A DNA stretch of 33,462 bases from Thermoplasmatota archaeon (lineage in GTDB: Archaea; Thermoplasmatota; Thermoplasmata; GCA-020350865; JAUVCJ01): assembly GCA_030595765.1 (NCBI GenBank), contig JAUVCJ010000001.1, positions 1 through 33,462 of the forward strand, given 5' to 3'. The translations under genes were made by a program, and so were the position numbers. The notes beneath the pieces are model-generated. The model was not told the origin of the DNA. It saw nothing but the letters and a program-made list of their open reading frames with translations, and ran no database searches. Positions within the stretch are counted from its first letter, which is position 1, and every line of letters begins with the position of its first letter. Shown piece after piece: positions 1,575-18,691 of this stretch.

Positions 1575-1727
1575 TTACTGGACAAATTCGGATGAGTTTA
1601 AGTTAACCATCCTGTGCATCACACCAGCCATCACACCAGCCATCACACCAGTATGGTCGGGCTTTCCAAAATAGCCAAAACTACCACCCTTTCCACATAA
1701 CGGACACTTAATCATCATTTTAGTCAT
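1575..1727 (-). CDS. Hypothetical 50-aa protein (single CPLC knuckle, GVMA x3 repeat); may not be expressed
   Basis: The ATG at 1727..1725 overlaps the ligase stop (minus strand aATGACTAA). Translation is MTKMMIKCPLCGKGGSFGYFGKPDHTGVMAGVMAGVMHRMVNLNSSEFVQ. The listed ORF 1575..1802 is the same frame extended upstream into the ligase gene. No recognisable family. Confidence 0.2.
   Translation of the reverse strand: MTKMMIKCPLCGKGGSFGYFGKPDHTGVMAGVMAGVMHRMVNLNSSEFVQ
1617..1650. repeat. 12-bp perfect tandem repeat catcacaccagc, about 2.8 copies
   Basis: Read directly: catcacaccagc catcacaccagc catcacacca. On the minus strand it encodes the GVMAGVMAGVM stretch of the mini-ORF. Confidence 0.9.
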
Positions 1728-2697
1728 TTTGATTCGCCTCCAACAATTTTTGAAGATAACCTCTAAAAAAATACGAAGTCTTTTTGGATATTGCCTTCTC
1801 AATCGTGCTGGTCATTTCAAATTCTCCATCAGCTTCAACAACAATATCCTCTCGCATAGCTCTAATGACCTCTCCTGTCTGTTTTATGGACGGCGAGGGA
1901 AGAAAAGCATCAAGTACGTGCATAAATCTCATATGCGTACACCATTCGTCTGCGATAGCCTCTGCTTCAAGCAATACTTCAGGGCTTACTCCTGGCTTCC
2001 TTTTGCTCGTAGTCTCTCGAAAAGCATCGTTTTTGTGTTTGGCAATCGTACGTTTTCCATTGTTCTGGGTCAGTTCTATAAGAGGTCTGATAACAATCCC
2101 TTCCCTGGCCTTATCCCCTTCAATCCCAAGCATCTTCGACACCAACGATGGCCTATCCCTCACTTCATCCAATTTTTCCAACGTACAATCGATTATCTCA
2201 CCTGGAACGCACATTAGATCGAGCTTTTCACAAAGTGGTGGTATTTTTTCAAATGAAAGGAAACAATCATCCACCTGTATCTCAAACACAATGAACTGAT
2301 TTGTCTTCCCATAGGTTCCAGACATCTTCATAAGCTTCCCTCCAAAGTGTTCACCATAAATCCTCACTTTTTTCTCTCCGAAAATCTCCGTAAGTTTGAA
2401 ATGTAGGGCTTCCTCGTCAAAAAGAGCCTCGAAATTCATCTGTTTTGCACCGCCAGGATGAAAATTCATTCTCTTGCTATCTCCATAATAGAGAATCCAC
2501 GCTGAAGTTCCGTGAACTTTTTCGGTGACCCACACTTTCTTGAACATCATTATTGTTTGGTCAGAATACAAATTTGGTATTTTCATATATCCCATTTTCA
2601 TTTCTCCTTCAATCATTCCCATAAATTGTAATCTACGAGCCAAAAGCCACCAGGCCTGAACACTGAGCAAGTTCAAGTTCTGTAATAAAGCGGTCAA
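1720..2697 (-). CDS. ATP-dependent RNA ligase, Rnl2-like (T4 RNA ligase 2 / DRB0094-type nucleotidyltransferase)
   Basis: The covalent nucleotidyltransferase motifs appear in the canonical order: I EKVHGTS (compare T4 Rnl2 EKIHGTN), III FIVFEIQV, IV EGIVIRP, V TIAKHKND. The listed start is TTG at 2697 and overlaps the GTPase stop (2694..2696). In-frame ATGs at 2622, 2616, 2601, 2595 and 2586 are alternative starts. Confidence 0.75.
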   Translation of the reverse strand: MTALLQNLNLLSVQAWWLLARRLQFMGMIEGEMKMGYMKIPNLYSDQTIMMFKKVWVTEKVHGTSAWILYYGDSKRMNFHPGGAKQMNFEALFDEEALHFKLTEIFGEKKVRIYGEHFGGKLMKMSGTYGKTNQFIVFEIQVDDCFLSFEKIPPLCEKLDLMCVPGEIIDCTLEKLDEVRDRPSLVSKMLGIEGDKAREGIVIRPLIELTQNNGKRTIAKHKNDAFRETTSKRKPGVSPEVLLEAEAIADEWCTHMRFMHVLDAFLPSPSIKQTGEVIRAMREDIVVEADGEFEMTSTIEKAISKKTSYFFRGYLQKLLEANQND

Positions 2698-3545
2698 ACC
2701 TGGTGGATCCAGTTCTTTCTCTTCTCCAGCTTCCGCATGGCTTCTGCCTGGCCCAGCGCCCCCAGCTCCACTTTCATGAGCTTGTTCACCAAAGCCATTG
2801 CATGGGTCTTGGTGGGGTTGTTGATGTCGAGATTGACAGCTTTTGCCTGCTGCCTGGCTATGGCCATTGCATATTCAGCATCCCGACCCATGCCCTGGCA
2901 GAAATCGGTGATGATGGCGTCCAGCACCTTGGAAAGAGTAGGCCTCCCGCTTGAAAGCTTCTGCTCTACAGCTATCCTGGGAACCTTCTGCCTGGCAGGA
3001 GTGGAAACTCCTGTACCCAATAAGCGGCCGCCAAGCATTTCAAAGACCTTCTCGATGTTCTCTCCGGTCTTTGCGCTGGTCAGGAAACCCTCTGAACCAA
3101 GCTCTAGTGCCAGCTCGTTGATCTCATCAAGGCCATATTCCCGCTTGTCAACAAGGTCAGCCTTGTTGCCGATCACCATCATGGGAACCTCCAGACCCTC
3201 TGAATACATCTTGGCCATCCAGTACTCCCTCAAACTCTCAAGGGTCTGCTTCCTTGTAAGATCACAGACCAGTAGTGCCCCTTGTGCTCCCCGGAAGGCA
3301 GAAGAGAGTATCATCTCGAAGTCCCTCTGGCCTATGACGTCCCATATCATCAACTCCAGCATTGTTGCGCTGGCCTGATGAGTGATTTGCATGGTCTTTC
3401 TGGAGATCTTAGTTCCAAGTGTTGCAATATATTTATCATCAAAAGTATCGGTCACAAACCGTTTGATGCAACTGGTCTTTCCAACTGCATGATCCCCTAG
3501 AAGAACCACCTTCTTCCTAACTTCCCTGGTTTGGACGCCTGCCAC
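2694..3545 (-). CDS. Ras/Rab-like small GTPase with about 100-aa C-terminal helical extension
   Basis: All five G boxes are present: G1 GDHAVGKT, G2 IATLGT, G3 WDVIGQ, G4 GNKADL, G5 TSAKTG. The start is GTG at 3545. Residues from about 185 to 283 (…DAIITDFCQGMGRDAEYAMAIARQQAKAV…) match no family I can name. Confidence 0.85.
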   Translation of the reverse strand: MAGVQTREVRKKVVLLGDHAVGKTSCIKRFVTDTFDDKYIATLGTKISRKTMQITHQASATMLELMIWDVIGQRDFEMILSSAFRGAQGALLVCDLTRKQTLESLREYWMAKMYSEGLEVPMMVIGNKADLVDKREYGLDEINELALELGSEGFLTSAKTGENIEKVFEMLGGRLLGTGVSTPARQKVPRIAVEQKLSSGRPTLSKVLDAIITDFCQGMGRDAEYAMAIARQQAKAVNLDINNPTKTHAMALVNKLMKVELGALGQAEAMRKLEKRKNWIHQV

Positions 3546-3802: not shown

Positions 3803-3927
3803 GTGGGCTGACGGCCATAGCGGCAGGGTCACACCCGGTCCCATCTCGAACCCGGAAGTTAAGCCTGCCTGCGTTCTCCGTTGTACTGTGGTGCGCGAGC
3901 CCACGGGAAGCTTAGGTCCTTGAGGCA
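3803..3927 (+). rRNA. 5S ribosomal RNA (archaeal type), not linked to 16S/23S in this window
   Basis: It contains the conserved 5S blocks GGCCATAGCGGCAGGG…CACCCGGTCCCATCTCGAACCCGGAAGTTAAGCCTGCCTGCG…GTACTGTGGTGCGCGAGCCCACGGGAA. The helix II, III and IV pairings are visible by eye. The ends are uncertain by about 5 nt because the terminal helix is weak. Confidence 0.85.
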
Positions 3928-4062: not shown

Positions 4063-7000
4063 CTAACCGCTCGTGCTATCACAGTTCTGCTTACCACCGG
4101 TCTGTTTCCTACCAGCTTCAGCTTTTCTGCGCCTCCTCCTCATAAAAATCATACAGAGAATAATTATTCCGCTGGGAGCCATGATATCAGAGAACTCTGG
4201 TATTACCTGGGTTGAGGCATTATCCTGAGAGTGTTCCAGTGCAATGCCCTTTCGCTCATAATCGAGGCCAACTATGTTGTTCAAGAAAAAGGACGTTGCA
4301 GGGTCATCGATCTGGACAGTTATCGTAAAGGAGTTGAGCGTGTTCTTTCTAACCCTTGTGAAGACATATTCCAGGGGGTTGCCGGCGGTGTCCGAGGAAT
4401 CATAGCTTCCATGTGAACTCGCAGTATCGCTGACATAGGTTACTCCAGATGGTAGGGTGTCATTGATCCATACAGTATCAGCATCCCTGTCTCCAGTATT
4501 ATTGAAATATATCGTATAGGTCAGCAGGCTCCCGGGCAAAGCGGTTGTCAGGTCCACTGTTTTTCCAACTGTGATTTGAGGTCTCTTTATCCCGGTTGAA
4601 GCGCTGGCATGGGTTGAGGGCTGAATGTCTCCGGTCAGATTGGTATATGTCGCGTGAACTGTGTTCGTAATGGTAGAGCCATTCACCACCCCTATGGCCG
4701 TTAGGATGTCAAATTCAATTATACCTCCTATTGGAACCCCTGAAAATATGTAACTCATCTCCTGCCCATTAATGGCGCCTGATACAAAATAACCAGAACC
4801 GCTTGCATCATCGCTTACATGAGTCGCCCCTTCTGGCAGGGTGTCGTTCACCCAAATTGTGTCTGCTGTATCTCCACCAATGTTTTCCAAGGCGATCGTA
4901 TATGTAAGACTATCACCCATTTCCACATCCACCTTGCTGCCTACTTTTGTTGTGTCCATATATGGCCCAGGAAGAGTCACTGTCGTATCTTCTGTAGCCT
5001 GTTTGGGTGTTATTGGAATGCCCAGCACATCTTCGGCTTCGACATCGATAATATTGGTTATCAGGCCGCTAATCGGAAGTGTTACATCAAATGATATCGT
5101 GAATGTGATTGTAGCCCCATCAGCAAGCCCTGAGAACTCAAACAATAGTGGATTGCTGGTGGTGTCTGAGCTCACAAAATGTGAATCAGAACTGCTTGTA
5201 TCCGAGAGATAGACCAACCCGGATGGGGATGTATCGTTGACCCAAATAGCTCCGGTCGTGCCGTCACCGGTGTTTTCCACTGTGATCGTGTATGTTAGGG
5301 TATCTCCGATGGTCACCGGATCAGCCGAGCCCAGCTTGGTCACATCCAGGTCTGGCTCGTTCTTGTCATTTGGCTTTCCTTTTGTGTTCACTACAGATTT
5401 ATACCAATCTTTGCTGCTATCATCGTCATCTGGGTAACCAGTATCCCCTAAGCGATACCGAGCATGGGTCTCTCCACTTTTTAGCCTTATTCCATTGAAG
5501 CCGTCTATCTCAACGCCGCTGGAGTCGAATATGCGAATAAGCGGGGGGTCATCGCCTAAGACTGTCCCCAAGTCCACCACCAGATATTCACTGCCTGATA
5601 GCCAGGCTCCAATAGAAGTTCCAGCAGGGAACGTGTATATTATTATGCCTGCACCTCTGCCAGCCCTGATAGTCCATCCTGATAGGTCCACTGCAACGCC
5701 AAGGGGGTTTGCCAGCTCTACCCAATCATTTGAGCCAAAAGAGCTTATTTCATTGACCACGACATTTGTTGCCTGGGCTCTTGAGGTGTACTCACTAGCT
5801 CTGGTATCATACCTATGGATGCCAAGGTCGGAAAGGTCAGAGTGCAATTCAGAGTCTTGGGTCCAGTCCGAAGTGGAAAGCCAGGCTTCAAAGTCAGATG
5901 TATCGTTGATACCGATACTTGAATAGTCAACCTGTAGCTCCAGAGAGTCCGAATCCAGCGCGGCAGAGATATTGCTCACGAAAGTCCAATTCCATTCAAC
6001 ATTGGATGTTCCTGAATAGGTGTAGAATATGGATGAGAGTATTCTGTTGTCCCTCCCTGTCACCTCTATTAGGGCTTCGGCTCCAAACGGCGCGCCATTA
6101 GAGTAACCGGTATCTAGGTCACGGTCGAGGTCAAGAAATACCATGGCATAATCAAGACCCTTGAGCTCCTCGATCTCAATGGGTCTAACTATTGGGGAGC
6201 TGATGTACAGCTCTCCCAGATAGGTGTCATTGCCATTGGGCCAATCACGTATGCCGTCACCATCGGTATCGATATGAGCCACCTCGTCGAAGCCGTCATT
6301 ATCATCATCAGAATCATTGAACCAGTCAATGCCATCATTGTCGTAGTCCTGCCAGTTATCAGGCTCGTCTATGTCTGGAATGCCATCACCGTCGGTGTCA
6401 CGGAGTGGAAGGCCGATGAATATCGACACATTTCTGCCACTGTATGGTTCGGGGTAGCTCGTTGGAATGGTTGTTTCCAGATAAGTATCGTTGCCATACG
6501 GATAATCCATCACTCCATCACCATCCACGTCCCGATTGGTCTCTCTATCGGGTATACCATCATTATTGAAATCTCCCTGGAATGCCAGAGGTTCAAGGTA
6601 GTCCGGAACTGTGTCCAGGTCATAGTCTGGCTTGGAAACCGACCGTAGTTTCACAGCTGGCACACTGGTTCCGCCAAGCATTGAGCCAGACACCTTGAAT
6701 AAAAATGACAGGTCTCTGGTGCTAGCTACCATATGATAGGAGGTCAGGTCGATGTTCGGGTTGATAGCATCTCCAACCCGGTCATTGTAGGGGACGAACC
6801 TGTTCCAGTCCGCAAAGGCGCCATCAACCACCACCCAGTCCGGAATGCTCTCCAGGTAATATGAGCTCAGCTCTTGAGAGTGGAGCGTCACTGGCTCCAA
6901 AGTGGCGATGTCGGCAGGAGATACCAGACGGAGCCCAAAGGATGAGCCAGGCAAAACAGATATCGGAACATCCACGGTGGTAAAGAGCGTGATGTTGTTT

Positions 7001-10000
7001 CCGGGTTCCACTCTCAGGCTCGGAGAGAAGTTTACGGTGCATCCATCGATCTGGAGGTTACATGTTCCGATTATCGGATCATCCTGGCCAAACACCCCGT
7101 CTTGATTTAGATCCCTATGAAGCGAAAGAGCCTCGATCACAGTGTCGTTCCCCTGCCTGTGAAAGCGAATGGACTCAACGTCAATGCTTGAAGCCTGGGC
7201 TGAAAGCTCAAGGCTCAGAACCTCCTGGTCATCGTCAGCATGTAAAATAGGTAATGAAGGCGAATTCTGAATTACCTGAAGTGCGCCAATGGTTGGAGTA
7301 ATTATCATATCTGTAAAGTCCTGGCTCATCTGAGTGACCGCCATGTTATTGGTCAGATGGAATATTGCCCTGATATTTTCTCTTAGAGTGAGGTCAATGG
7401 TTCCGGAAAGGAATTTTCCCTCTATGGTATTGCCCGATGTAGCGAGTTTGGGAGCAGTTGGAACCGGGTTGAAACCATTCCAGTCCATGGGATCAGACTC
7501 CGAATCAAAGATGAACATCGCAATGGATGTTACCCTGTTTGACCACCCATGCGTCTCCAATAGGTAATCAGCCCCCATGTCCTGAACGATATATCCAGTG
7601 TCTGGATTATTATCAGTATCCAAAAACACCCTAAGAGAATCAGTGCCAAACTCGCCTCTGAATATCTCTGGGCCAACAACTTCAAGGAAGAATGAAAGCT
7701 CTCCTGATCTGGTTGCCAGACCATAGCTCTGGATGTTGATGCTTTCGGAAATTCCATGCTCATAGCCATCATAATAAACTGCCTGACCGTCCCAGTCCGA
7801 CCTATCGCCATCTATCAAAAGGCCTGGTTCGCCATCAGGAAGCAAGAAATGGGACAAAAATGGAGCACTAAGCAGTAGAATGAATATCATGCATATTGCC
7901 ATGAAACTGCGCAGCATCCTGCCAGGCTCTGGCTCGAACCGACCCCTATACATCTGCCTGTTACCGTTGACAAGGCCGTTGCCGTTGACAAGGCCACGAG
8001 AGAAAAGACCATTGACAAGGCCGTTGCCGTTGACGAAGCCGTTGCCATTTATCAGGCCATTCCCGTTGATAAGGCCACGATTTGCACCTGTGCGAAGGCC
8101 ATTGACGAGGCCGTTGCCATTAATCAATCCACGACCGTTGGTAAGGCCATTGACAAGACCGCGACCATTGATGGCACCTCGGCCGTTTACGAGACCGCGA
8201 CCATTGATGGCACCTCGACCGTTTACGAGACCACGACCATTGATGGCTCCTCGACCGTTGATAAGACCACCAGGCAGGCCATTGACAAGACCACGACCAT
8301 TGATGGCTCCACGGCCGTTGGTAAGACCATTGACCAGACCGCGGCCGTTGATGGTTCCGCGGCCGTTGCTAAGGCCGCCAGGCAGGCCATTGACAAGACC
8401 GCGACCATTGACTGCTCCACGACCGTTGGTAAGACCATTGACCAGTCCACGGCAATTTATGGCTCCACGGCCGTTTACCAAACCTCTGCCATTCACTGCA
8501 CCAGTTCCATTTACAAGGCCAAAATCATCCCGGTCTGAAACCCTGATAGGGAATAGTGAATCTTTCGTGAAAGGGGTGCCATTGGTCAGGCCTAGTCCAT
8601 TTACAAGGCCAAGCTTCTCACGATCCGGATAACGCTGTGGGGGCTGGGTCGAGAGGGCAGTAATTCGTTTTCCAGATGGTTGTGGGATAAGTGAGGCCTT
8701 TCCGTCTCCATCTAAAAGGATGCTATTGAGCACATCAACCTTGATGGAAGCCTCCATATCGAGGTTCAGCTCCGCAGCCTTATCGAAGCAAACCATGGCC
8801 TCTTCCTTCCGGCCAAGCATCCACAGAAGCTTGCCCTTGGAGTGCCAGGCTCGATAAAGGCCGGCATCGGCATCCAATAATTCATCAAAGAACCCAACCT
8901 GACCCTCGAGGTCGCTTACCCTACTCTCTTCCTCTGGGCTTAGGCCAGCCTTATGAGCTTTTCGTGCTGCCTTTTTCGGCATGGGTCTAGGCCTCTTTCG
9001 AGGCTGTGGAGGCTCTGGTGGCATAATCGATGCTGCAAGGGATGCCTGCTCCTCAAGAATCGACCTCTCCTGCTCAGAAATTACCTTCTCAACAAGCTCC
9101 GTTCCTACAAGTTCATCCTCAAAAATGACCTCATCATCCAAAGATGGCTCATCTACATAGGGCTCTTCTCCAATGGGAATACCGTCAACAGGAATGAGCT
9201 CATCATCAGAAGCTACTAGTTCCTCCTCAAAGATGGGTTCTTCCTCAAAGAAAGGCTCTTCCTCAAAGCCTAGTTCTCCTTCTAGAACGGACTCTTCCTC
9301 AAAGGCTGGTTCTCCTTCTGGAATGGGCTCTTCCTCAAAGAAGATTTCATCATCAGAGATGATTTCCTCGGTAGGAGCCGCATGCTCCTTCTCAAAGGCG
9401 GGTGCTTCGTCCAAGGGAAGCCCATCAACAGACATTGGCTCTTTTTCCAGGGAAGATTCAGCATCAGGCGCCACCGGCTCATCAGGTATCTGGGCTTGGG
9501 ACTCTTCCTCCACTACACCCTTCCATCTCTTCCTGAAGTCCTGGGATATCCCTCCCTTCCTCCTCTTGGGTTTTGCTGACCCGGTGCCTGCACTGTGGCC
9601 GCACAAAGCGCAGTGGTCAGCACCCTCCATCAATGGAGCGCCACAGTTGGCACACAATCCGTCTGTTGGCAGGTCTGGTGCTTGTGGCTCAAAGTCTCCA
9701 CTGGGCTCAGGATCCTGTGTCTCAGGTTCTAGGGCAATGTCAAAAATGTCATCAATGTCGGGAAGCTCTTCTGGTTTGGAGGTTATGGATGGAGCCAATG
9801 GAGCAGGCTCAAGCTCCTCCTCGATCTCGTCCACTTCAAACATGGGTGCTTCTACAAACTCATCGGCCTCAATGCCAATGTCATCATCAAACACACCTTC
9901 TCGGGGGATGGTGCCACCTGCCAGTTCTTCCTCGTCGATCTGAGTCCCACAAACTGGGCAGTCCTCCAACTCCTCTGAAAGCAATGCTCCGCAATCTTTG

Positions 10001-12159
10001 CAGATATACAACTCCTGGATCTCTGGCTTCTCGTCCTCTACGGGTCCGGCGACTCCTTCCTCATCAAGCTCAGATGCTCCTTCCTCCTCGAAGATGCCCA
10101 TGAACTTCTCCAGCTCATCCATCTGGGCTCTTTCCTCTTTAGCGGAGGATTCGTCGCTAACCTCTTCAGGCAATGCCTCTCTAGCAGTTCCTTCCCATGC
10201 AAGCTCACTCTCAGAAACTGCCTTCTCAACAAGCTCCGCCTCTACAACTTCCCCCTCATCACGCTTCCCCTCGACAAGAACCTCTTCAGCAAGTTCATCC
10301 TCGACGAGCTCGTCTATGCTGTCGAATGCCATTCCACAGAGCACGCAGCTGGCCATATCCGAGCTGTTGGTGGCGCCACACTTTGGGCAGGTTCTCATCT
10401 CAATACTATCCTGCTCACTGGCACCAGCTGTGTCGTCAGTAGCAGAATCAACATCACCATCCAGCTCTGGCTGTTCACCCAAGCCCAGGAACGCTCTTGC
10501 GGCCTGTATGGCCTCATCCTCTTCTTCATCAACTTTCACTTTCTCGACATCAGCTTCAAGTTCTGACCCGAGTTCTGACCCAAGTTCAGACCCAAGTTCA
10601 GATTCAGCAACTGCTCCTGTATCAGCATCAAAGCCTGAACCAGAACTGATATCGACCTCACCAGATACAACGTCGGCTTCGGCATCAGCTTTGACAGCGG
10701 CCTCGATACCGATCTCTGCATCGGCCTCAGCACCGGCCTCAACACCAACTTCATCATCGGCCTCAAACAATGCACCGCATATCTGGCACCCCTCTGCGCC
10801 TGCCGGTACGAATGCCCCGCAATTCGGGCACATATCCAGCTCATTATCCCCACGATACCAGTAACCATCCTGATCCTTATCTGCCTGAGATCTTCCTGCA
10901 ACTTCGGCTTTCTGAACCTCTTCGGCATCCTCTGATGTGTCCTGCTCATCGCCAGCCTCGAACACAGCGCCACAAATCCCGCATTCTTCGGAGTCGGGAG
11001 GCACAAAAGCCCCACAGTTGGGACACATCTCTATGTGAGTCTCGTCCTTGTACCAGTAACCGTCACGATCCTCGTCTTCTGGGATATGGACTTCTTCGCC
11101 ACCCTCCTCGCCATCATCTTCCTCGACCCCGCCAAACACGGCGCCGCAGATCTGGCATTCCTCTGAGTCAGGAGGCACGAAAGCACCACAGTTCGGGCAC
11201 ATCTCCAGGCTTGCCTCGTCCTTGTACCAGTAGCCGTCTGTGTCTGATCCGGCTTTTCCTCCTGGCTCTAGCTCACCGTCAGATGCTTCTCCAGTGGCAG
11301 CCTCGGAGCCATCCCCAACAGCAACACCATCATCCTCATCTGTGCCAGCCTCGAACACTGCACCGCAAATACCGCATTCCTCTGAATCTGGAGGAACAAA
11401 GGCGCCGCAGTTCGGGCACATCTCCAGGTTTGCCCCATCCTTGTACCAGTAGCCATCAGTATCAGGTCCAGCTTCTGCTCCTGGCCCTAGCTCACCTTCA
11501 GATGCTTCTCCAGTGGCAGCCTCAGAGCCATCCTCAACATCAATCCCTTCATCGTTTTTTGTGCTGGCCTCGAACACAGCACCGCATATCTGGCATTCCT
11601 CTGAATCTGGAGGCACAAAGGCACCGCAGTTCGGGCACATCTCCAGGCTTGCCTCATCCTTGTACCAGTAGCCATCAGTATCAGAACCGGTTCCTGCCTT
11701 TGGCTTACCACCAGATGAGTCTTCAGTGGCAGGCTCGGAACCGTCCTCAACAGCAACACCATCATCCTCATCTGTGCCAGCCTCGAACACTGCACCGCAG
11801 ATCTGGCATTCCTCTGAATCTGGAGGTACGAAAGCACCGCAATTGGGGCACATCTCCAGGTTCGATTCGGTCTTGTACCAGTAATCGTCAGTCTCCTGGC
11901 CAGTCAAGGCTTCATCAGCCTTTCGCTCAGCTTCCCTTTGGACCGCTTCCTCAACTTTGATTCTAGCATGCTCAAGAAGGTTTACGGCCAATACAGCTCC
12001 AAAGCCTCCAAGAACTAGAATGTCATGGATATCGGCGGAGAGCAATCTCTTCCATGAGTCGTAACCGGCTTCCACCAGCAATTGGGCCTTCAAAGGGCCA
12101 ATTTTTGGAACTCGTTGGAGCTCCTCCACAAAATCCTTGGTCATTATACATGCATCCAA
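4063..12159 (-). CDS. Giant (2,698 aa) bitopic protein: cytoplasmic HhH + 9 zinc ribbons + acidic linkers + TPR + NGRG hexapeptide repeats, one TM, adhesin-like ectodomain, PEF-CTERM-like tail
   Basis: This is a single uninterrupted ORF. Conserved motifs occur throughout (see sub-features), which argues that the whole frame is coding. A second in-frame ATG (MTKDF…) lies at 12144. Confidence 0.9.
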   Translation of the reverse strand: MDACIMTKDFVEELQRVPKIGPLKAQLLVEAGYDSWKRLLSADIHDILVLGGFGAVLAVNLLEHARIKVEEAVQREAERKADEALTGQETDDYWYKTESNLEMCPNCGAFVPPDSEECQICGAVFEAGTDEDDGVAVEDGSEPATEDSSGGKPKAGTGSDTDGYWYKDEASLEMCPNCGAFVPPDSEECQICGAVFEASTKNDEGIDVEDGSEAATGEASEGELGPGAEAGPDTDGYWYKDGANLEMCPNCGAFVPPDSEECGICGAVFEAGTDEDDGVAVGDGSEAATGEASDGELEPGGKAGSDTDGYWYKDEASLEMCPNCGAFVPPDSEECQICGAVFGGVEEDDGEEGGEEVHIPEDEDRDGYWYKDETHIEMCPNCGAFVPPDSEECGICGAVFEAGDEQDTSEDAEEVQKAEVAGRSQADKDQDGYWYRGDNELDMCPNCGAFVPAGAEGCQICGALFEADDEVGVEAGAEADAEIGIEAAVKADAEADVVSGEVDISSGSGFDADTGAVAESELGSELGSELGSELEADVEKVKVDEEEDEAIQAARAFLGLGEQPELDGDVDSATDDTAGASEQDSIEMRTCPKCGATNSSDMASCVLCGMAFDSIDELVEDELAEEVLVEGKRDEGEVVEAELVEKAVSESELAWEGTAREALPEEVSDESSAKEERAQMDELEKFMGIFEEEGASELDEEGVAGPVEDEKPEIQELYICKDCGALLSEELEDCPVCGTQIDEEELAGGTIPREGVFDDDIGIEADEFVEAPMFEVDEIEEELEPAPLAPSITSKPEELPDIDDIFDIALEPETQDPEPSGDFEPQAPDLPTDGLCANCGAPLMEGADHCALCGHSAGTGSAKPKRRKGGISQDFRKRWKGVVEEESQAQIPDEPVAPDAESSLEKEPMSVDGLPLDEAPAFEKEHAAPTEEIISDDEIFFEEEPIPEGEPAFEEESVLEGELGFEEEPFFEEEPIFEEELVASDDELIPVDGIPIGEEPYVDEPSLDDEVIFEDELVGTELVEKVISEQERSILEEQASLAASIMPPEPPQPRKRPRPMPKKAARKAHKAGLSPEEESRVSDLEGQVGFFDELLDADAGLYRAWHSKGKLLWMLGRKEEAMVCFDKAAELNLDMEASIKVDVLNSILLDGDGKASLIPQPSGKRITALSTQPPQRYPDREKLGLVNGLGLTNGTPFTKDSLFPIRVSDRDDFGLVNGTGAVNGRGLVNGRGAINCRGLVNGLTNGRGAVNGRGLVNGLPGGLSNGRGTINGRGLVNGLTNGRGAINGRGLVNGLPGGLINGRGAINGRGLVNGRGAINGRGLVNGRGAINGRGLVNGLTNGRGLINGNGLVNGLRTGANRGLINGNGLINGNGFVNGNGLVNGLFSRGLVNGNGLVNGNRQMYRGRFEPEPGRMLRSFMAICMIFILLLSAPFLSHFLLPDGEPGLLIDGDRSDWDGQAVYYDGYEHGISESINIQSYGLATRSGELSFFLEVVGPEIFRGEFGTDSLRVFLDTDNNPDTGYIVQDMGADYLLETHGWSNRVTSIAMFIFDSESDPMDWNGFNPVPTAPKLATSGNTIEGKFLSGTIDLTLRENIRAIFHLTNNMAVTQMSQDFTDMIITPTIGALQVIQNSPSLPILHADDDQEVLSLELSAQASSIDVESIRFHRQGNDTVIEALSLHRDLNQDGVFGQDDPIIGTCNLQIDGCTVNFSPSLRVEPGNNITLFTTVDVPISVLPGSSFGLRLVSPADIATLEPVTLHSQELSSYYLESIPDWVVVDGAFADWNRFVPYNDRVGDAINPNIDLTSYHMVASTRDLSFLFKVSGSMLGGTSVPAVKLRSVSKPDYDLDTVPDYLEPLAFQGDFNNDGIPDRETNRDVDGDGVMDYPYGNDTYLETTIPTSYPEPYSGRNVSIFIGLPLRDTDGDGIPDIDEPDNWQDYDNDGIDWFNDSDDDNDGFDEVAHIDTDGDGIRDWPNGNDTYLGELYISSPIVRPIEIEELKGLDYAMVFLDLDRDLDTGYSNGAPFGAEALIEVTGRDNRILSSIFYTYSGTSNVEWNWTFVSNISAALDSDSLELQVDYSSIGINDTSDFEAWLSTSDWTQDSELHSDLSDLGIHRYDTRASEYTSRAQATNVVVNEISSFGSNDWVELANPLGVAVDLSGWTIRAGRGAGIIIYTFPAGTSIGAWLSGSEYLVVDLGTVLGDDPPLIRIFDSSGVEIDGFNGIRLKSGETHARYRLGDTGYPDDDDSSKDWYKSVVNTKGKPNDKNEPDLDVTKLGSADPVTIGDTLTYTITVENTGDGTTGAIWVNDTSPSGLVYLSDTSSSDSHFVSSDTTSNPLLFEFSGLADGATITFTISFDVTLPISGLITNIIDVEAEDVLGIPITPKQATEDTTVTLPGPYMDTTKVGSKVDVEMGDSLTYTIALENIGGDTADTIWVNDTLPEGATHVSDDASGSGYFVSGAINGQEMSYIFSGVPIGGIIEFDILTAIGVVNGSTITNTVHATYTNLTGDIQPSTHASASTGIKRPQITVGKTVDLTTALPGSLLTYTIYFNNTGDRDADTVWINDTLPSGVTYVSDTASSHGSYDSSDTAGNPLEYVFTRVRKNTLNSFTITVQIDDPATSFFLNNIVGLDYERKGIALEHSQDNASTQVIPEFSDIMAPSGIIILCMIFMRRRRRKAEAGRKQTGGKQNCDSTSG
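4066..4200 (-). other. PEF-CTERM-like sorting signal (PEF + TM helix + RRRRRK), followed by an unusual 19-aa tail
   Basis: The C-terminus reads …QVIPEFSDIMAPSGIIILCMIFMRRRRRKAEAGRKQTGGKQNCDSTSG. PEF is encoded at 4192..4200. Confidence 0.6.
4215..5350 (-). repeat. Three DUF11-type ('conserved repeat domain') Ig-like modules
   Basis: The pattern …(V/L)TK/GK…GD(T/S)LTYTI…ENTG/NIG/NNTGD…(I/V)W(V/I)NDT(S/L)P(S/E)G…Y(L/V)SD… recurs three times with a period of about 125 aa. Confidence 0.7.
5440..5775 (-). other. Lamin-tail-domain (LTD)-like segment
   Basis: VVVNEISSFGSNDWVELANPLGVAVDLSGWTIRAG…LVVDLG…IRIFDSSGVEIDGF matches the typical LTD signature (INE…fVELyNp…vdLsGW). Confidence 0.6.
6225..6580 (-). 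other. Asp-rich Ca-binding-like repeats (thrombospondin type-3-like DxDxDGxxD)
   Basis: The motifs are DFNNDGIPDRETNRDVDGDGVMDYPYGNDTYL, then DTDGDGIPDIDEPDNWQDYDNDGIDWFNDSDDDNDGFDEVAHIDTDGDGIRDWPNGNDTYL. Confidence 0.6.
7838..7917 (-). other. Only internal hydrophobic segment of the giant protein (signal-anchor / TM helix)
   Basis: …YRGRFEPEPGR-MLRSFMAICMIFILLLSAPFLSHFLL-PDGEPG. Arg-rich sequence on the N-terminal side implies an N-in/C-out orientation by the positive-inside rule. Confidence 0.75.
7960..8612 (-). repeat. Asn-Gly-Arg-Gly hexapeptide tandem repeats (NGRG[LA][VI]; 18/36-nt DNA units), about 215 aa
   Basis: The protein reads …GLVNGRGAINGRGLVNGRGAINGRGLVNGRGAINGRGLVNGLTNGRG…. 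Near-identical 36-nt DNA units are visible, e.g. at 8160..8270. Confidence 0.9.
9590..10400 (-). other. Three divergent zinc ribbons (numbers 7-9) embedded in poly-acidic linkers
   Basis: The three ribbons are RTCPKCGATNSSDMASCVLCGMAF, YICKDCGALLSEELEDCPVCGTQI and GLCANCGAPLMEGADHCALCGHS. Confidence 0.8.
10758..11890 (-). repeat. Six tandem zinc-ribbon modules D(D/G)YWY(K/R)-x6-MCPNCGAFVP(P/A)…C(Q/G)ICGA(V/L)F with acidic linkers
   Basis: The module is repeated every 180-220 nt. The YWY codons lie near 10855, 11040, 11225, 11445, 11663 and 11875. The ribbon cores are nearly identical at DNA level. Confidence 0.9.
11965..12123 (-). other. Two helix-hairpin-helix (HhH) motifs at the N-terminus of the giant protein
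   Basis: ELQRVPKIGPLKAQLLVEAGYDSWKRLL and ILVLGGFGAVLAVNLLEHA fit the hxxhxGhGxxxAxxh HhH pattern. Confidence 0.6.
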
Positions 12160-12185
12160 GACGCTTGACCCGTCTTAGTATAGAG

Positions 12186-12206
12186 AACATATTAATGCAT
12201 TATAAC
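12186..12206 (-). promoter_or_regulatory. Candidate TATA region for the giant gene
   Basis: The minus strand reads …gttataatgcattaatatg…, 30-46 nt upstream of ATG 12159. This would give a very short leader. Confidence 0.3.
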
Positions 12207-12212
12207 AATAGG

Positions 12213-12236
12213 ATAGACACGTATCTATTATAGATA
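12213..12236. promoter_or_regulatory. ATAGA / TCTAT palindrome cluster (candidate operator)
   Basis: The sequence ATAGAcacgtATCTATtATAGAT contains a perfect 13-bp palindrome (atctat-t-atagat). This overlaps a 16-bp palindrome with one mismatched pair. The cluster lies just upstream of the TATA-like region of the giant gene. Confidence 0.35.
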
Positions 12237-12329
12237 ACATTAAGGCTTACAAAAATTTGTATGTATGCATCATGTGTTAGGCCAAAACGAAAGTAGAGAT
12301 GATTGGAAAACCCTTTCTTGCCAAAATAG

Positions 12330-13040
12330 TCAGATCCGGACTTCGCTGAAAGGGTCGGTAGAGACTATCAGGGTGTGAACCTCCCTGTCCATTTTTAGCT
12401 TTAGTATGAGCTCAAGGTCGGTCATTCTTACCACTTCAGGACTTAACCCTTCCTCTTTTAGCTTGTTGAGCAGCCGCTCCTTGAAACTTCTGGTTCTGGC
12501 GCTTCGACCCTCGCTAAGGGTTGCCAGCAATGCTGTTGGGTAGTAGCGGCGAAACCTGCCATCCTCGACAACCTCCAGCAGACCCTGGACCTGGAGCTCC
12601 TTTGCGTGCTTTCCTGTGGTCTGATGTGCGGTATTGAGCCTTGCTCCCAGCTCCTTTTGGGTCGAACCAGGGGATCTTAATATCTCCATGAACATAGCTC
12701 TGGTCCGTGACCTGTTCAGGAGAAGAAGTATCGGAAGTTCGTCTGGGTCAAGCAATCCCACAGGGCAGAAAGCGCATCTTCCTCCACTGCGAACCTGGAA
12801 GATGTATTGCCCCTGACGTAGCTTATCCAGATGCCACCTGAGGGTGTGCATGTCCATCCCCAACCCTGATGAGATATCTCCCTGATAGGAGCCTGGATGT
12901 TTGCATAAAAAAGTGTAGATGTTTCTCCGTCTTTCATTGACCAGAGGAGAGCGAAGACCCCTGCGCTTTTTGATGCCTGCAGATGGCAAGATATCTTTGC
13001 CAAGCGCCTTGTTCAAAGCCTTTCCCATTCTCTGGGGCAT
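12330..13040 (-). CDS. Transcription regulator with two winged helix-turn-helix domains (ArsR/MarR-like)
   Basis: wHTH 1 is RRRNIYTFLCKHPGSYQGDISSGLGMDMHTLRWHLDKLRQGQYIFQVRSGG. wHTH 2 is RTRAMFMEILRSPGSTQKELGARLNTAHQTTGKHAKELQVQGLLEVVEDGRFRRYYPT. The start lies 10 nt after the KaiC-like gene stop. Confidence 0.75.
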   Translation of the reverse strand: MPQRMGKALNKALGKDILPSAGIKKRRGLRSPLVNERRRNIYTFLCKHPGSYQGDISSGLGMDMHTLRWHLDKLRQGQYIFQVRSGGRCAFCPVGLLDPDELPILLLLNRSRTRAMFMEILRSPGSTQKELGARLNTAHQTTGKHAKELQVQGLLEVVEDGRFRRYYPTALLATLSEGRSARTRSFKERLLNKLKEEGLSPEVVRMTDLELILKLKMDREVHTLIVSTDPFSEVRI

Positions 13041-13050
13041 GCATTCATCC

Positions 13051-13914
13051 TCAGAGATACTCTTCGAGTATGTATTTGACTAGCTCTTCGGCAGGCAGGT
13101 CCTCAAAATCACCGTCAGTGAGCTCACCAAGGGTTTTTGCCATGTGAGTGGCAACAGATGCAGGTAGCTTGCTGCTCTTCAGAATTGATTCTAGCTCCAT
13201 TGGAATGGTCCTTGAGTCATCCACACGATATTCTCCATGCTGGACTATTAGCCCCAGCCCTTTTATTATACGGTATGGGTGGGAAAGTTCGCTATGACGG
13301 GTGGATCTTGCTTTAACTATCTTGAGCATCCTGTAGGCTCCGCCTTCCATTGCCCGATAACGCAGGTGCATGACACAATCAGCCAGGTACATCGGGATGA
13401 TAGTTTCGGATCCAGACAGGTCACTGGCTGTACCATGCTCTTCAAGGGTGCACAGCACGGTCCCGACCTTCCTGGTCTGCTTGAGTAGAAATGATATCAG
13501 GTCCCGTTGCTCATAATGATCCTTGGTGGACCACATCACAGGGGTCAGAGGATCGACGACTATCCTAGCATTCGAGCCCTTCCAATCCTCCACAAAGGAT
13601 GGCAATTCCTTTCTGATGAAGGTGGAAAACTCCCTGCCAGAGGCATCAATGAACACAAGCTGCTCCTCCTCCAGGTACCTAAGGATGTCTGGCCAACCCA
13701 TCTCTACGGCCTCGCGTATTATCTGCTCCTTGTTCTCGTCCAGGCTGACAAATATCGCTTCCTGGCCAAGCTCCAGTCCTCTTCGAATGAACTGGGTGGC
13801 AAAGGTGGTCTTGCCTGCGCCTGAGCAACCAATGACAACTGTGGTGGAGTTCTCGTTGATCCCGCCATCCAGAAGTGGGTTCAATCCGTAAATGCCGCTC
13901 TTGATCTTCTTCAA
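13051..13914 (-). CDS. KaiC-like RecA-superfamily ATPase (single domain) with about 60-aa C-terminal extension
   Basis: The N-terminal motif is SGIYGLNPLLDGGI, Walker A is GCSGAGKTT and the Walker B-like strand is ARIVVDPLT. The overall layout is that of archaeal COG0467-type KaiC/RadA-like proteins. Confidence 0.85.
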   Translation of the reverse strand: MKKIKSGIYGLNPLLDGGINENSTTVVIGCSGAGKTTFATQFIRRGLELGQEAIFVSLDENKEQIIREAVEMGWPDILRYLEEEQLVFIDASGREFSTFIRKELPSFVEDWKGSNARIVVDPLTPVMWSTKDHYEQRDLISFLLKQTRKVGTVLCTLEEHGTASDLSGSETIIPMYLADCVMHLRYRAMEGGAYRMLKIVKARSTRHSELSHPYRIIKGLGLIVQHGEYRVDDSRTIPMELESILKSSKLPASVATHMAKTLGELTDGDFEDLPAEELVKYILEEYL

Positions 13915-16582: not shown

Positions 16583-17395
16583 TCATTCCTTGGTAAGGCT
16601 TGCACTCATGCCGCAGCTCGGACATGTGATGGACTTATTTTTGGGGTTGAAATTAAAATCTTTTTTGCACGACGGACAGGTCACACTGGGCAAATAACTC
16701 CGAGAAGAGGGCTTAGTGGTTGCCGAGGCCATGGTTGTTACAGGAGGTGTAACAGGAGGAGTTACAGGAGGGGTGGTTGCTGAGGGAGCCTTATTCACTT
16801 CAGGAGGTAGTATCTGAATCTGAGGCGAAGGTGCAACTGACACACTGGCGGTAACGTTCTGATAGGGCTGCTCGATATTGACAGTGACACCATTATGCTG
16901 CCCATAGCTGGGATGATTCGAGGATATGTGGGCGATGAAGGCTGAACCAGCACCTATCATCCCCGAGGGAACTAAGAACATGCTAAGTTGGACGATTGCC
17001 TGACCCCAATCCACATTTGGAGTGTAGGAGTATCCAGCAGAAGTGGTAAAAGTCACTGGAAACTTGATGCTGATAGCTACTGCTAAAAATGAGATTATGA
17101 TTAACATGAGAAGCAGATAGCCTATCATTCCAGAGACACTGCCAATTAGAATAGCGGAAAACCTGCTACTACTAGACCGGCCCTGTGATGCGCCTGTGAA
17201 CAATGAGATTATCGGAGAAACGATTATAACAAGTAAGCACCCAGCGAGGCCGAACACGCCAGACAAAACGGAGTAGGAACCATTCAAAAAAACTATAGAG
17301 GAAAAATATGCCAGGCCAAATGCCAGGCCAACAAGAACAAAATATGTTACGCCAAAACCTATGCTTTTTACAAGCTCTATCTCTTTTTGATCCAT
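16583..17395 (-). CDS. Membrane protein (4 TM) with Pro/Thr-rich linker and C-terminal zinc ribbon, paralogue 1
   Basis: The TM helices include FGVTYFVLVGLAFGLAYFSSIVF and LLMLIIISFLAVAI. The linker is TPPVTPPVTPPVT and the C-terminus is LPSVTCPSCKKDFNFNPKNKSITCPSCGMSASLTKE. Confidence 0.7.
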   Translation of the reverse strand: MDQKEIELVKSIGFGVTYFVLVGLAFGLAYFSSIVFLNGSYSVLSGVFGLAGCLLVIIVSPIISLFTGASQGRSSSSRFSAILIGSVSGMIGYLLLMLIIISFLAVAISIKFPVTFTTSAGYSYTPNVDWGQAIVQLSMFLVPSGMIGAGSAFIAHISSNHPSYGQHNGVTVNIEQPYQNVTASVSVAPSPQIQILPPEVNKAPSATTPPVTPPVTPPVTTMASATTKPSSRSYLPSVTCPSCKKDFNFNPKNKSITCPSCGMSASLTKE

Positions 17396-17664: not shown

Positions 17665-18537
17665 TCATTCCTTGCTAGCACTTCCCTTCATGCCACAGTT
17701 CGGGCAAGTTATGGATCGGTGTTCAGGGTTGAACCGGAATTCGGTATTGCATTCTGGGCATGTGATGCTGGGTAGGGGCTTGCCCAGTGTGGTCTCTGGC
17801 GCCTGTGGACTTTGGCTTCGATTTGGACTTAGACTTGGACTTGGACTTTGACTTCGATTTGGACTTAGACTTTGGCCTGGACTTTGATATTGATTTCGAT
17901 TTTGGGTAGATGGCCGGGGGGCTACTGCCATAGGAACAGGCGAGGTGTGAGGTGGTCGTGGTTGAGGATACGGGCTTCCCATCGGTTGCTGTGGATGCCC
18001 ATAGGCGTTGGGAGCATACCCAGTTGGTGTGTCTGGGAAATACCCGACAGGAGCCGGGCGCAGGAAAAAATATGCCAGGAAAGACGTGCCAGCTCCAATG
18101 AATCCTGCTGGCAGGAAGAATATGGCCATCCCGTATAATACAAGACCCCAGTCAACGTTCGAATAGTAGAAGTCTGTAGTTGAGGTGGTGGTGCCAGGCG
18201 GATATTTTATTCCCATAGCAGCCGCCATGAGGCCGATCACAATGAACATGAGAAGCATGTATCCCACCATTCCAGATATGCCGCCGCTGAGAATAGCGGA
18301 AATTGTGTTCTTACTGGTTCTGCCCTGGATCATGCCTGTGAACAGGGCGAGAATTGGCGCAATTACTATGAATAACAGGCTTCCAACTAAGCTAAACATT
18401 CCCATCACCAGAGAAGTTGAGGAATCTAAGGTGACTATCGAGAGAAAGGTGCCAATGCCAAATCCGAGGCCAACCACGATGAAGCATGCTATGCCAAATA
18501 CTATGCTTTTTAAAAGGCTCATCTCTGTTCGTTCCAT
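17665..18537 (-). CDS. Membrane protein (4 TM) with Pro/Ser-rich linker and C-terminal zinc ribbon, paralogue 2
   Basis: The start is placed at ATG 18537 (MERTEMSLLKSIVFGIA…) by alignment with paralogue 1 (MDQKEIELVKSIGFGVT…). Shared blocks are FTGxxQGRxS, SAILxGxxSGMxGYxLLM, SNVDWG and PxGxIGAG. The C-terminus is LPSITCPECNTEFRFNPEHRSITCPNCGMKGSASKE. The listed ORF extends to 18660. Confidence 0.7.
   Translation of the reverse strand: MERTEMSLLKSIVFGIACFIVVGLGFGIGTFLSIVTLDSSTSLVMGMFSLVGSLLFIVIAPILALFTGMIQGRTSKNTISAILSGGISGMVGYMLLMFIVIGLMAAAMGIKYPPGTTTSTTDFYYSNVDWGLVLYGMAIFFLPAGFIGAGTSFLAYFFLRPAPVGYFPDTPTGYAPNAYGHPQQPMGSPYPQPRPPHTSPVPMAVAPRPSTQNRNQYQSPGQSLSPNRSQSPSPSLSPNRSQSPQAPETTLGKPLPSITCPECNTEFRFNPEHRSITCPNCGMKGSASKE
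17808..17905 (-). repeat. 36-bp tandem repeat encoding SPNRSQSPSPSL-type linker
   Basis: cttcgatttggacttagact occurs at 17816 and again at 17852, and the surrounding ggactt/gacttt units are reiterated. Confidence 0.7.
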
Positions 18538-18691
18538 ATCGATCTCCAATAGGGATATCGAAAATGGGCTTTTTATGTCTTTCACAGCAAAGAGCCGAGC
18601 CGTATATCTCACAGGAAAAATGGTGCGGGAACTAGCTATTACCTGTTGCCAGGCAACCACGATATAATGAGTACAATTGCCCTAGCCGTCC

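Follow-up and report, generated by a model that had tools for sequence, protein, structure and literature searches.

Characterised relatives among the KaiC-like ATPases include the archaellum protein ArlH and Haloferax CirA. According to PMC5847659, which cites Makarova, Galperin & Koonin 2017, KaiC-family ATPases have been proposed as signal-transduction hubs of archaea, and the fusion of inactivated KaiC ('iKaiC') domains to signalling partners is a hallmark of that proposal. Here we analyzed a 33,462-nt stretch of a Thermoplasmatota archaeon (positions 1 to 33,462 of contig JAUVCJ010000001.1, assembly GCA_030595765.1; hereafter the window), in which the gene for a giant one-pass membrane protein lies next to genes for a KaiC-like ATPase and for a protein with two winged-helix-turn-helix (wHTH) domains. 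Like the proposed hub modules, this locus pairs a single-domain KaiC ATPase with a wHTH protein and a multidomain partner in a gene neighbourhood that is conserved, and iKaiC occurs in the partner's paralogues. Unlike in those modules, the partner is a giant one-pass surface protein with a head of paired helix-hairpin-helix motifs, (HhH)2, zinc ribbons, a tetratricopeptide repeat (TPR) and an NG repeat, followed by an adhesin-like ectodomain. By a small margin over even chances, we favor the view that it is a one-pass surface receptor or adhesin coupled to the KaiC-like ATPase and a wHTH output, where docking, direction of signalling and output are what we infer.

The layout also resembles that of bacterial one-pass sensors, including ToxR/CadC, RsgI/SigI, FecR and the zf-HC2 anti-sigmas, in which an N-terminal cytoplasmic part that binds nucleic acid or a regulator is joined through one transmembrane (TM) helix to an external beta-sandwich or carbohydrate-binding-like sensor, and a dedicated transcription factor gene adjoins. 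However, there is no homology, the cytoplasmic part here is 10-30 times longer, the module contains a KaiC-like ATPase but no zf-HC2 or sigma-factor partner, and the adhesin-type repeats of the ectodomain extend over more than 1,200 aa. Domains were scored by Pfam and NCBIfam scans plus direct motif counting, and neither database gave a zf-HC2/RsgI anti-sigma match in the giant protein. The anti-sigma likeness is one of analogy, and to our knowledge archaea have no sigma factors.

The third comparison is with DUF11/LTD surface proteins that carry a signal peptide, such as the actinobacterial isopeptide-forming fimbrial/DUF11 proteins (P0028, P0033) and archaeal PGF/PEF-CTERM proteins. The C-terminal ~570 aa, which comprise the LTD-like domain and the three DUF11 repeats, are homologous to these, and the C-terminal tail is likewise tripartite, with a motif, a TM helix and basic residues. 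Unlike the present protein, in which an internal signal-anchor follows about 1,415 cytoplasmic residues, they have a cleavable signal peptide; the N-terminal hydrophobic peak lies at residues 5-7 in P0028, P0031, P0033, P0035 and P0037. The window protein lacks the cleavable N-terminal signal peptide of a classical secreted giant adhesin, and its first TM helix begins only at residue ~1413 (positions are numbered from the ATG at 12144).

A conserved triad of KaiC-like, wHTH and giant genes

The KaiC-like ATPase retains the Walker A, Walker B and catalytic Glu motifs (GCSGAGKT, IVVDPL and TLEEHG), has a C-terminal extension of ~60 aa, and matches KaiC CI in the PDB at 2.7e-32. Against models of the named archaeal subfamilies (KaiC_arch_3, KaiC_arch_4, thermo_KaiC_1 and ArlH) it fell below every cut-off, with the best score for KaiC_arch_3 (108.7 bits vs 249) and 42.8 bits vs 215 for ArlH. 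Since it scores below all of the subfamily cut-offs, we regard the ATPase as a distinct KaiC subfamily.

The KaiC-like gene lies ten bases upstream of the wHTH gene, and both are directly upstream of the giant gene on the same strand. Contigs were fetched for five homologues, and the order KaiC (~290 aa), wHTH (204-236 aa) and giant gene was found again for P0001, P0004, P0011 and P0024. At the same-order loci L001, L002, L003 and L005, the genes further out differ from those of the window, and the wHTH orthologues, which keep the same position, are 27-37% identical. Across the fetched homologue contigs, the KaiC orthologues are 65-70% identical to the window ATPase.

A genome scan with a KaiC alignment, covering one genome per GTDB species, found KaiC relatives in 134 species-representative genomes. 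The best 80 of these 134 (64-73% identity) all come from Thermoplasmata, 'Methanomassiliicoccales', Proteinoplasmatales SG8-5, or soil/groundwater metagenome-assembled genomes (MAGs). Among the 80 loci, 59 were informative, being fetched with at least 3 kb of downstream sequence, and 55 of these 59 contain the full triad of KaiC, a wHTH-sized ORF and a giant ORF; in two more the triad is disrupted or displaced. In most of the 80 loci the gene after the KaiC orthologue is a wHTH-sized ORF of 227-242 aa, and the giant ORFs of the triads (1,045-2,889 aa) have 1-15 zinc ribbons, NG repeats and an IDGxFxDW motif. Thus, in many genomes this KaiC family is linked or fused to putative input/output domains, which is the linkage looked for in a KaiC hub.

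In some loci we found a parallel cassette, named 'type 2', that encodes, in this order, a wHTH protein (178-233 aa), a KaiC/DUF7125 ATPase (233-239 aa) and a giant protein with NG repeat, TM helix and beta-sandwich. These type 2 giant proteins begin with a KaiC-type domain that has lost the Walker A motif (iKaiC). The iKaiC head is full-length in P0027, P0029 and P0030, and shorter in P0016 and in a 1,640-aa ORF of L001.

The conserved triad, together with the iKaiC fusions in paralogues, points to the KaiC-like ATPase and the double-wHTH protein as partners of the giant protein. We propose that the outside part would form an adhesin- or ligand-binding-type stalk, in which two beta-sandwich modules carrying Asp repeats that may bind Ca are followed by an LTD-like domain and by DUF11 in three copies. 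Inside, from the membrane inward, a basic NG repeat would hug the membrane, followed by a TPR-like unit, an acidic 'beads-on-a-string' array of nine ribbons and the (HhH)2 tip. This cytoplasmic scaffold would dock the KaiC-like ATPase and/or the wHTH regulator, and events at the ectodomain, such as binding, mechanical load or clustering, would alter the state of the ATPase or the availability of the regulator, which in turn would change gene expression. The module would in that case be a KaiC-hub counterpart, in archaea, of tethered bacterial sensors such as ToxR/CadC or the RsgI anti-sigma factors. A further step, which we take only tentatively and at somewhat less than even chances, is that the triad may be an undescribed archaeal trans-membrane signalling system and the first concrete 'receptor' input of a KaiC-type hub, converting surface attachment or ligand binding into ATPase-gated transcription; it would be shared by a large radiation of uncultured Thermoplasmata and have a parallel version with iKaiC fusions, and the variable zinc-ribbon/acidic array would then be a tunable docking platform.

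Archaeal signal transduction is poorly understood, and few inputs or outputs are known for the proposed KaiC-like hubs. The module offers a testable candidate, an adhesin-like surface receptor genetically locked to a conserved KaiC-like ATPase and a DNA-binding protein, and more than 50 species of Thermoplasmata from soil, sediment and groundwater, none of them represented in culture, carry it.

Several observations were made at individual loci. Some genomes carry at least two paralogous giant proteins side by side (L001 15567-21747; L006 1-12603; L053 4828-9960), each with its own small wHTH and KaiC-type gene or with an iKaiC head, an arrangement that suggests a multi-receptor repertoire. 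The wHTH partners share an N-terminal 'GKALE.A' motif, and a similar 'GLGKALSE' follows the first zinc ribbon of the paralogous giant protein of L053 (4828-9960); the two may represent a short motif that both use for docking. In L005, a site-2-protease-type Peptidase_M50 with PDZ domains is encoded at positions 611-2227, about 4 kb upstream of the triad. Intramembrane proteolysis is a signalling route of many one-pass bacterial sensors; the peptidase gene was seen at one locus and is possibly a coincidence. A known anti-phage defence system was also considered and rejected, as in PADLOC the giant protein had no match, and the KaiC-like and wHTH proteins showed only generic P-loop and Csa3-type wHTH similarity.

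Integrity and orientation of the giant protein

The giant gene lies in an uninterrupted ORF (4063..12159, minus strand) of 2,698 codons counted from TTG, whose translation contains no internal stop. The ATG at 12144 was taken as the start because the N-termini of homologues line up with the ATG-started product. Among 5.8 billion proteins searched, we found 29 family homologues (1,523-2,821 aa), drawn from NCBI, JGI, ENA and Logan assemblies and labelled as 'Thermoplasmata', 'Thermoplasmatota' or 'Methanobacteriota' MAGs. BLASTP high-scoring segment pairs from 29 of the 29 span query residues 1251-1850, which include the junction of repeat, TM helix and ectodomain. With all of the homologues aligned through this junction, an assembly chimera or frameshift between 7920 and 8700 was ruled out. 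The first-pass annotation had taken the two halves as one gene, and the same collinear order in independent assemblies bears this out: the ORF is a single genuine protein.

Two regions of the gene are tandemly repeated. Tandem Repeats Finder detected a 219-bp x 3.3 array beneath the first zinc ribbons (11135-11860, 83% DNA matches) and periods of 18/36/108 bp beneath the NG repeat (7960-8475). Since the first ribbons lie in a tandem array, the ribbon copy number hinges on correct assembly. We compared the cores of the six ribbon units and counted 151 synonymous and 91 non-synonymous differing codons in 420 pairwise codon comparisons. The many synonymous differences mark the units as old selected copies, not identical repeats that an assembler might invent, and the synonymous excess is consistent with purifying selection on the zinc ribbons.

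It is conceivable that the ORF is a chimera or fused call of a cytoplasmic zinc-ribbon protein and a secreted adhesin, or that the topology is inverted, and two tandem-repeat regions prone to assembler error, with an uncertain exact repeat copy number, speak for such an artefact. We consider it extremely improbable. The repeat, TM helix and IDGxFxDW motif are collinear in independent NCBI, JGI, ENA and Logan assemblies, with 29/29 homologues aligned at the junction, and the family-wide asymmetries of charge, sequons and cysteines, along with the missing signal peptide, contradict an N-out orientation.

These asymmetries are centred on the TM helix, which was confident in both AlphaFold2 models made here. 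In the window protein, five Arg are present in the 20 residues before the helix and an acidic stretch comes after it. Across the family, the median number of Lys plus Arg in 20 aa is 5 before the helix vs 1 after it, and the count is higher before than after in 80 of 80 relatives. N-x-S/T sequons occur at 0.21 per 100 aa inside vs 1.67 outside, an 8-fold difference in the same direction in 80/80 relatives, and cysteines at 3.05 per 100 aa on the N-terminal side vs 0.22 on the C-terminal side. The window protein alone has 3 sequons in its N-terminal half vs 17 in its C-terminal half, and 38 vs 2 cysteines. No hydrophobic segment and no signal-peptide-like N-terminus was found in the first 40 aa of the window protein or of the 80 relatives. 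Further, a KaiC-type domain, an ATPase fold, stands at the N-terminus of paralogues, and the N-terminus should therefore be cytoplasmic.

Taken together, these sequence features make it almost certain that the protein is N-in/C-out, with its first ~1,415 aa in the cytoplasm and its last ~1,250 aa outside the cell, and the N-out topology was ruled out by the charge, sequon and Cys asymmetries and the missing signal peptide. The initial reading of a lone internal hydrophobic helix with an Arg-rich lead-in and a cytoplasmic N-terminal half thus holds, with positive-inside charge in 80/80 relatives. 'Giant adhesin' gene calls in archaeal MAGs can therefore conceal very large cytoplasmic domains, which affects their annotation, for example as attachment or host-interaction markers.

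Domains on the two sides of the membrane

The features of the triad and of the giant protein are collected in Table 1.

Table 1. Coordinates of the triad genes and of the segments of the giant protein in the window
Feature	Position	Strand	Residues	Basis
KaiC-like ATPase gene, single domain	13051..13914	-	287 aa	Pfam PF06745, 2.9e-37, 128.7 bits vs 26.6 cut-off
Double winged-helix protein gene	12330..13040	-	236 aa	Pfam MarR_2, HTH_20, HTH_24; ArsR/SmtB-type (ArsR/MarR-type domains)
AT-rich intergenic spacer, 185 bp, with TATA-like elements	12145..12329	-		Sequence
Giant one-pass membrane protein, coding sequence	4063..12144	-	2,693 aa	From first ATG 12144; in-frame TTG at 12159
N-terminal (HhH)2 domain	11962..12126	-	7-61	Pfam HHH_5, 31.8 bits vs cut-off 27
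Six tandem 'DGYWYK + CPNCG-x10-CxICG' ribbon units with acidic linkers	10750..11889	-	~86-465	DZR, Zn_ribbon and HVO_0416-type matches
Three more divergent zinc ribbons (7-9) with acidic linkers between	9601..10389	-	586-848	Pfam, motif count
Basic short motif PKRRKGGISQDFRKRWKG (family 'RGISKDF..RW' motif)	9514..9570	-		Composition, homologue motif counts
Second poly-acidic linker, 35% D+E	9010..9489	-	886-1045	Least conserved stretch of giant protein
TPR-like helical repeat	8707..8925	-	~1074-1146 (unit 1097-1128)	Pfam TPR_8/TPR_1/TPR_2, sub-threshold
Basic Gly/Asn-rich NG(R)G juxtamembrane repeat	7960..8604	-	~1181-1395	Alignment, composition, tandem repeats
Single internal TM helix (signal-anchor)	7837..7908	-	~1413-1436	Hydropathy peak 2.34
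Membrane-proximal ectodomain: beta-sandwich (IDGxxxDW / DxDxN..TGY..GAD motifs) and Ig-like beta-sandwich	6859..7827	-	1440-1762	Homologue alignment
Second IDGxFxDW beta-sandwich, split by DxDxDG Asp repeats	5815..6843	-	~1768-2110	Motif at aa 1773
Lamin-tail-like (LTD) domain	5566..5778	-	2123-2193	Pfam LTD PF00932, 33.7 bits vs 34.3 cut-off
Three DUF11/CLIPPER-type repeats	4225..5400	-	~2249-2640	Pfam DUF11 121.3 bits, 3 stretches; TIGR01451 120.1 bits
C-terminal tripartite tail: IPEF, hydrophobic helix (IIILCMIFM), RRRRRK	4066..4200	-		Sequence

The (HhH)2 domain forms the extreme N-terminus. A family profile of this domain matched the N-terminal (HhH)2 of eL32 (3e-16) and the N-terminal domain of Rad51/RadA (4e-11), and also Topo V, Hel308 domain 5 and Pol X; the matches to solved (HhH)2 domains range from 3e-16 to 1e-7. 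Of 61 giant ORFs from the KaiC-linked loci, 56 begin with a match to such a profile at their extreme N-terminus. The domain may contact DNA or the RecA-fold ATPase.

The affinities of the (HhH)2 domain raise the alternative of a membrane-to-nucleic-acid tether, in which (HhH)2 binds DNA or RNA and the KaiC-like ATPase acts in trans, echoing the RadA layout, so that the chromosome or moving DNA is held at the surface. The profile does match nucleic-acid-binding (HhH)2 domains including that of Rad51/RadA, the ATPase falls within the KaiC/RadA-like group, two DNA-binding wHTH domains are present in the conserved partner, and the basic NG(R)G repeat may be likened to RGG-type nucleic-acid-binding low-complexity sequence. 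However, (HhH)2 domains mediate protein contacts too, the net charge of the cytoplasmic half (-214) disfavours bulk binding of nucleic acid, no nuclease, translocase or pilus genes were linked in any locus examined, and the best matches of the ATPase are KaiC, not RadA. We consider such a tether distinctly improbable. The first-pass annotation had guessed at tethering or signalling between the cell surface and cytoplasmic nucleic acid, ribosomes or a partner protein scaffold. Partner proteins gained support from the triad and the iKaiC fusions, and nucleic acid is possible through (HhH)2; ribosomes did not, the eL32 resemblance of (HhH)2 being the sole pointer to them.

Behind the (HhH)2 domain come exactly nine CxxC-x10-CxxC ribbons, starting at residues 99, 170, 243, 316, 374, 439, 586, 715 and 831. 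These putative zinc ribbons score above the Pfam thresholds (DZR 81.8 bits, Zn_ribbon_3 74 bits, Zn_Ribbon_1 71.8 bits), and ribbons 1-6 are near-identical 'DGYWYK...CPNCGAFVPPDSEECQICGAVFE' units. Like DZR and the HVO_0416-type zinc-ribbon proteins (NF041910 / PF28085), whose models it matches, the unit has the form 'D-x-[FY]-W-Y-K ... CPxCG-x10-CxxCG'; unlike here, where six tandem units and three divergent ribbons are built into a membrane protein, the archaeal HVO_0416-type proteins are stand-alone micro-proteins of ~60 aa. In the literature that we found, HVO_0416 is listed and not characterised. The individual domains, HHH_5, DZR, DUF11 and KaiC, are ordinary members of known families. 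The acidic linkers contain 27-35% D+E. The PKRRKGGISQDFRKRWKG motif is a candidate docking site; a GISKDF-type motif is present in 16/29 homologues, and the stricter pattern that includes ..RW in 15/61 ORFs.

Nearer the membrane, the TPR-like unit scored 20.4 bits vs a Pfam cut-off of 25.7, and homologues pass several TPR models. In the AlphaFold2 model the unit is a helical repeat, predicted with confidence (pLDDT about 75-93). The NG repeat has invariant N/G columns in the homologue alignment, and residues 1211-1400 have a net charge of +21 and not a single acidic residue. A regular left-handed beta-helix for this repeat was judged unlikely, the NG-unit spacing varying from 4 to 6 residues in homologues. 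Of the cytoplasmic modules first read from the letters, the two HhH motifs, nine ribbons, acidic linkers and NG repeat were recovered by Pfam and motif counts. The TPR unit is backed by the AlphaFold2 helical repeat and the TPR matches of homologues, although it stays below the Pfam thresholds in the window protein itself.

For the 357 TM-proximal residues, AlphaFold2 with 17 aligned homologues gave the TM helix and two beta-sandwiches (pLDDT 85.6). Foldseek matches of the membrane-proximal ectodomain in the PDB include peptidylglycine monooxygenase, the staphylococcal adhesins Bbp/FnBPA, sialidase carbohydrate-binding modules and integrin legs, as well as a weak match to the RsgI-like anti-sigma domain 6qdi (E about 1e-3). 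The region of the second IDGxFxDW beta-sandwich is kept in at least 92% of homologues. Its DxDxDG repeats are thrombospondin-type-3-like and putatively Ca-binding, and most homologues are annotated with LTD. Among the extracellular modules that had been named for the C-terminal half, three DUF11 repeats and 17 sequons stand, LTD is borderline in score, and the Asp repeats are visible in the letters and have no Pfam match.

At the extreme C-terminus we found a second hydrophobic segment, passed over in the first-pass annotation, in the arrangement IPEF, TM helix and RRRRRK. A PE[F/M] motif is present in the last 70 residues of 25/29 homologues. Scored with PEF-CTERM models, the tail reached 8.3 bits vs a TIGR03024 cut-off of 23, three homologue tails reached 9.5-14.6, and TIGR04296 was not passed either. 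No archaeosortase-like gene is present among the ORFs of the 33-kb window. The PEF-CTERM-like tail probably gives the protein a second, C-terminal anchor.

Such an ectodomain would also fit a purely structural envelope protein, an adhesin, S-layer-like protein or tether, whose expression is controlled by the KaiC-like and wHTH proteins and which conducts no signal across the membrane. The cytoplasmic half would then be an anchor or spacer, for example an acidic 'brush' with a membrane-hugging basic repeat. Typical surface modules (DUF11, LTD, beta-sandwiches and Asp repeats) with a PEF-CTERM-like tail agree with this, as do external and linker parts that evolve fast while the ATPase is conserved and the giant gene's probable own promoter. 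We nevertheless hold it to be unlikely: a plain anchor leaves the near-universal (HhH)2 tip (56/61) unexplained, the zinc ribbons are apparently under purifying selection, an inactivated KaiC is repeatedly fused to the same scaffold in paralogues, and a local regulator pair would not normally keep 65-73% identity and its synteny in over 50 species.

Returning to the receptor coupled to the ATPase and wHTH output, we note the points that weigh against it. The KaiC/wHTH pair could merely regulate transcription of the giant gene, which may have its own promoter in the 185-bp spacer. In 2 of the 59 informative loci (L033 and L045) a KaiC orthologue stands without a giant gene. The window protein itself, of type 1, has no KaiC-type domain, and the fusion evidence comes from paralogues. 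The Foldseek matches of the ectodomain are generic two-sandwich ones with a TM-score of at most 0.30 and suggest no ligand, and in the model of TPR, NG repeat and TM helix, AlphaFold2 gave no confident fold for the NG repeat (pLDDT 30-68), which would lie on the path of any signal from TM helix to scaffold. Finally, the host lineage has no cultured member.

The NG-repeat, TM-helix and beta-sandwich family

The 29 homologues share the Pfam set HHH_5, DZR/Zn-ribbon, TPR, LTD and DUF11, and their giant proteins are only about 30% identical to that of the window. Their common order is an (HhH)2 or KaiC-type domain, 2-12 zinc ribbons, the 'RGISKDF' motif (16/29), TPR, NG repeat and TM helix. The NG repeat stops about 20 aa ahead of the helix, the 'IDGxFxDW' domain comes about 28 aa past the TM start with a second copy about 320 aa further on, and the distal end has variable repeats and then the PE[F/M] tail. 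In databases, relatives are named 'lamin tail domain-containing', 'zinc ribbon domain-containing', 'DUF11 domain-containing' or 'TIGR01451 repeat protein'.

A typical member has about 1,500 aa, three ribbons and about 500 cytoplasmic residues, with the TM helix near residue 480-560; over the family, cytoplasmic parts of about 400 to about 1,400 aa and 1 to 15 ribbons occur. The window protein has the largest cytoplasmic expansion seen (TM at ~1413), and the next largest have about 1,340-1,360 aa. The ~1,400-aa cytoplasmic half is best explained as a lineage-specific expansion of such a ~500-aa head, in which ribbons were duplicated and both the acidic linkers and the NG repeat grew longer.

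When searched against 1.84 billion cluster representatives, a profile of the membrane-proximal ectodomain gave 4,529 matches, 760 of them at E<=1e-30. Among 141 top-listed representatives that we inspected, 87 had a recognisable TM helix and IDGxFxDW, and 67 of these 87 had a cytoplasmic part of 100 residues or more. Of the 67, 62 have NG repeats immediately ahead of the TM helix, 43 have zinc ribbons and 11 an HhH-like motif. The unit of NG repeat, TM helix and beta-sandwich thus forms the core of a large family that has no name and in which the cytoplasmic heads are interchangeable. Even if the window protein were only structural, it would still define this family, with its 760 cluster representatives at E<=1e-30.

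The domain order thus recurs in other archaeal genomes, in the 29 homologues and the KaiC-linked loci. The architecture had first been described as outside any described family. This stands insofar as no named family covers the whole, but the protein is not a one-off, being conserved in a large family. Neither Pfam nor NCBIfam has a named family that matches the whole-protein architecture or the three-gene module, and our literature search found no published description of the architecture or triad, although a mention in Makarova et al. 2017 is possible.

Other genes in the window

A lone 5S rRNA gene (3807-3926, plus strand; Rfam RF00001, 80 bits) sits on the strand opposite to the giant gene, within the 517 bp that separate the stop codon of that gene from a downstream GTPase gene. 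The 33-kb window has no other rRNA or tRNA. Unlinked rRNA genes are typical of Thermoplasmata, and the lone 5S gene fits this pattern. The GTPase is Ras/Roc-like and small (2694-3545, minus strand; 283 aa with a ~110-aa C-terminal extension), and its gene overlaps by 4 nt with that of an Rnl2-like RNA ligase (1720-2697, minus strand). The two genes are apparently co-transcribed, and it is unusual to find a eukaryote-type small GTPase paired with an RNA ligase. A functional link of the giant gene to this pair was rejected, as the opposite-strand 5S rRNA gene lies between them and the pair is absent from homologous loci.

On the far side of the triad, positions 24082-25950 (plus strand) encode a 622-aa predicted secreted protein without a Pfam match, in which a signal-peptide-like N-terminus is followed by a (GGD)x11 repeat. 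The next gene (26818-28224) encodes an unannotated 468-aa protein in which an external domain is combined with several TM helices and an acidic tail. Three further minus-strand genes (16583-17395, 17665-18660 and 26203-26766) encode membrane proteins of one layout, in which a linker rich in Pro/Ser/Thr/Gln joins a multi-TM N-terminus to a 'CPxC...CPxCG' zinc ribbon at the C-terminus. Only the ribbon has a Pfam match, and the first two genes are neighbours and paralogues. The attachment of zinc ribbons to membrane proteins appears to recur in this genome.

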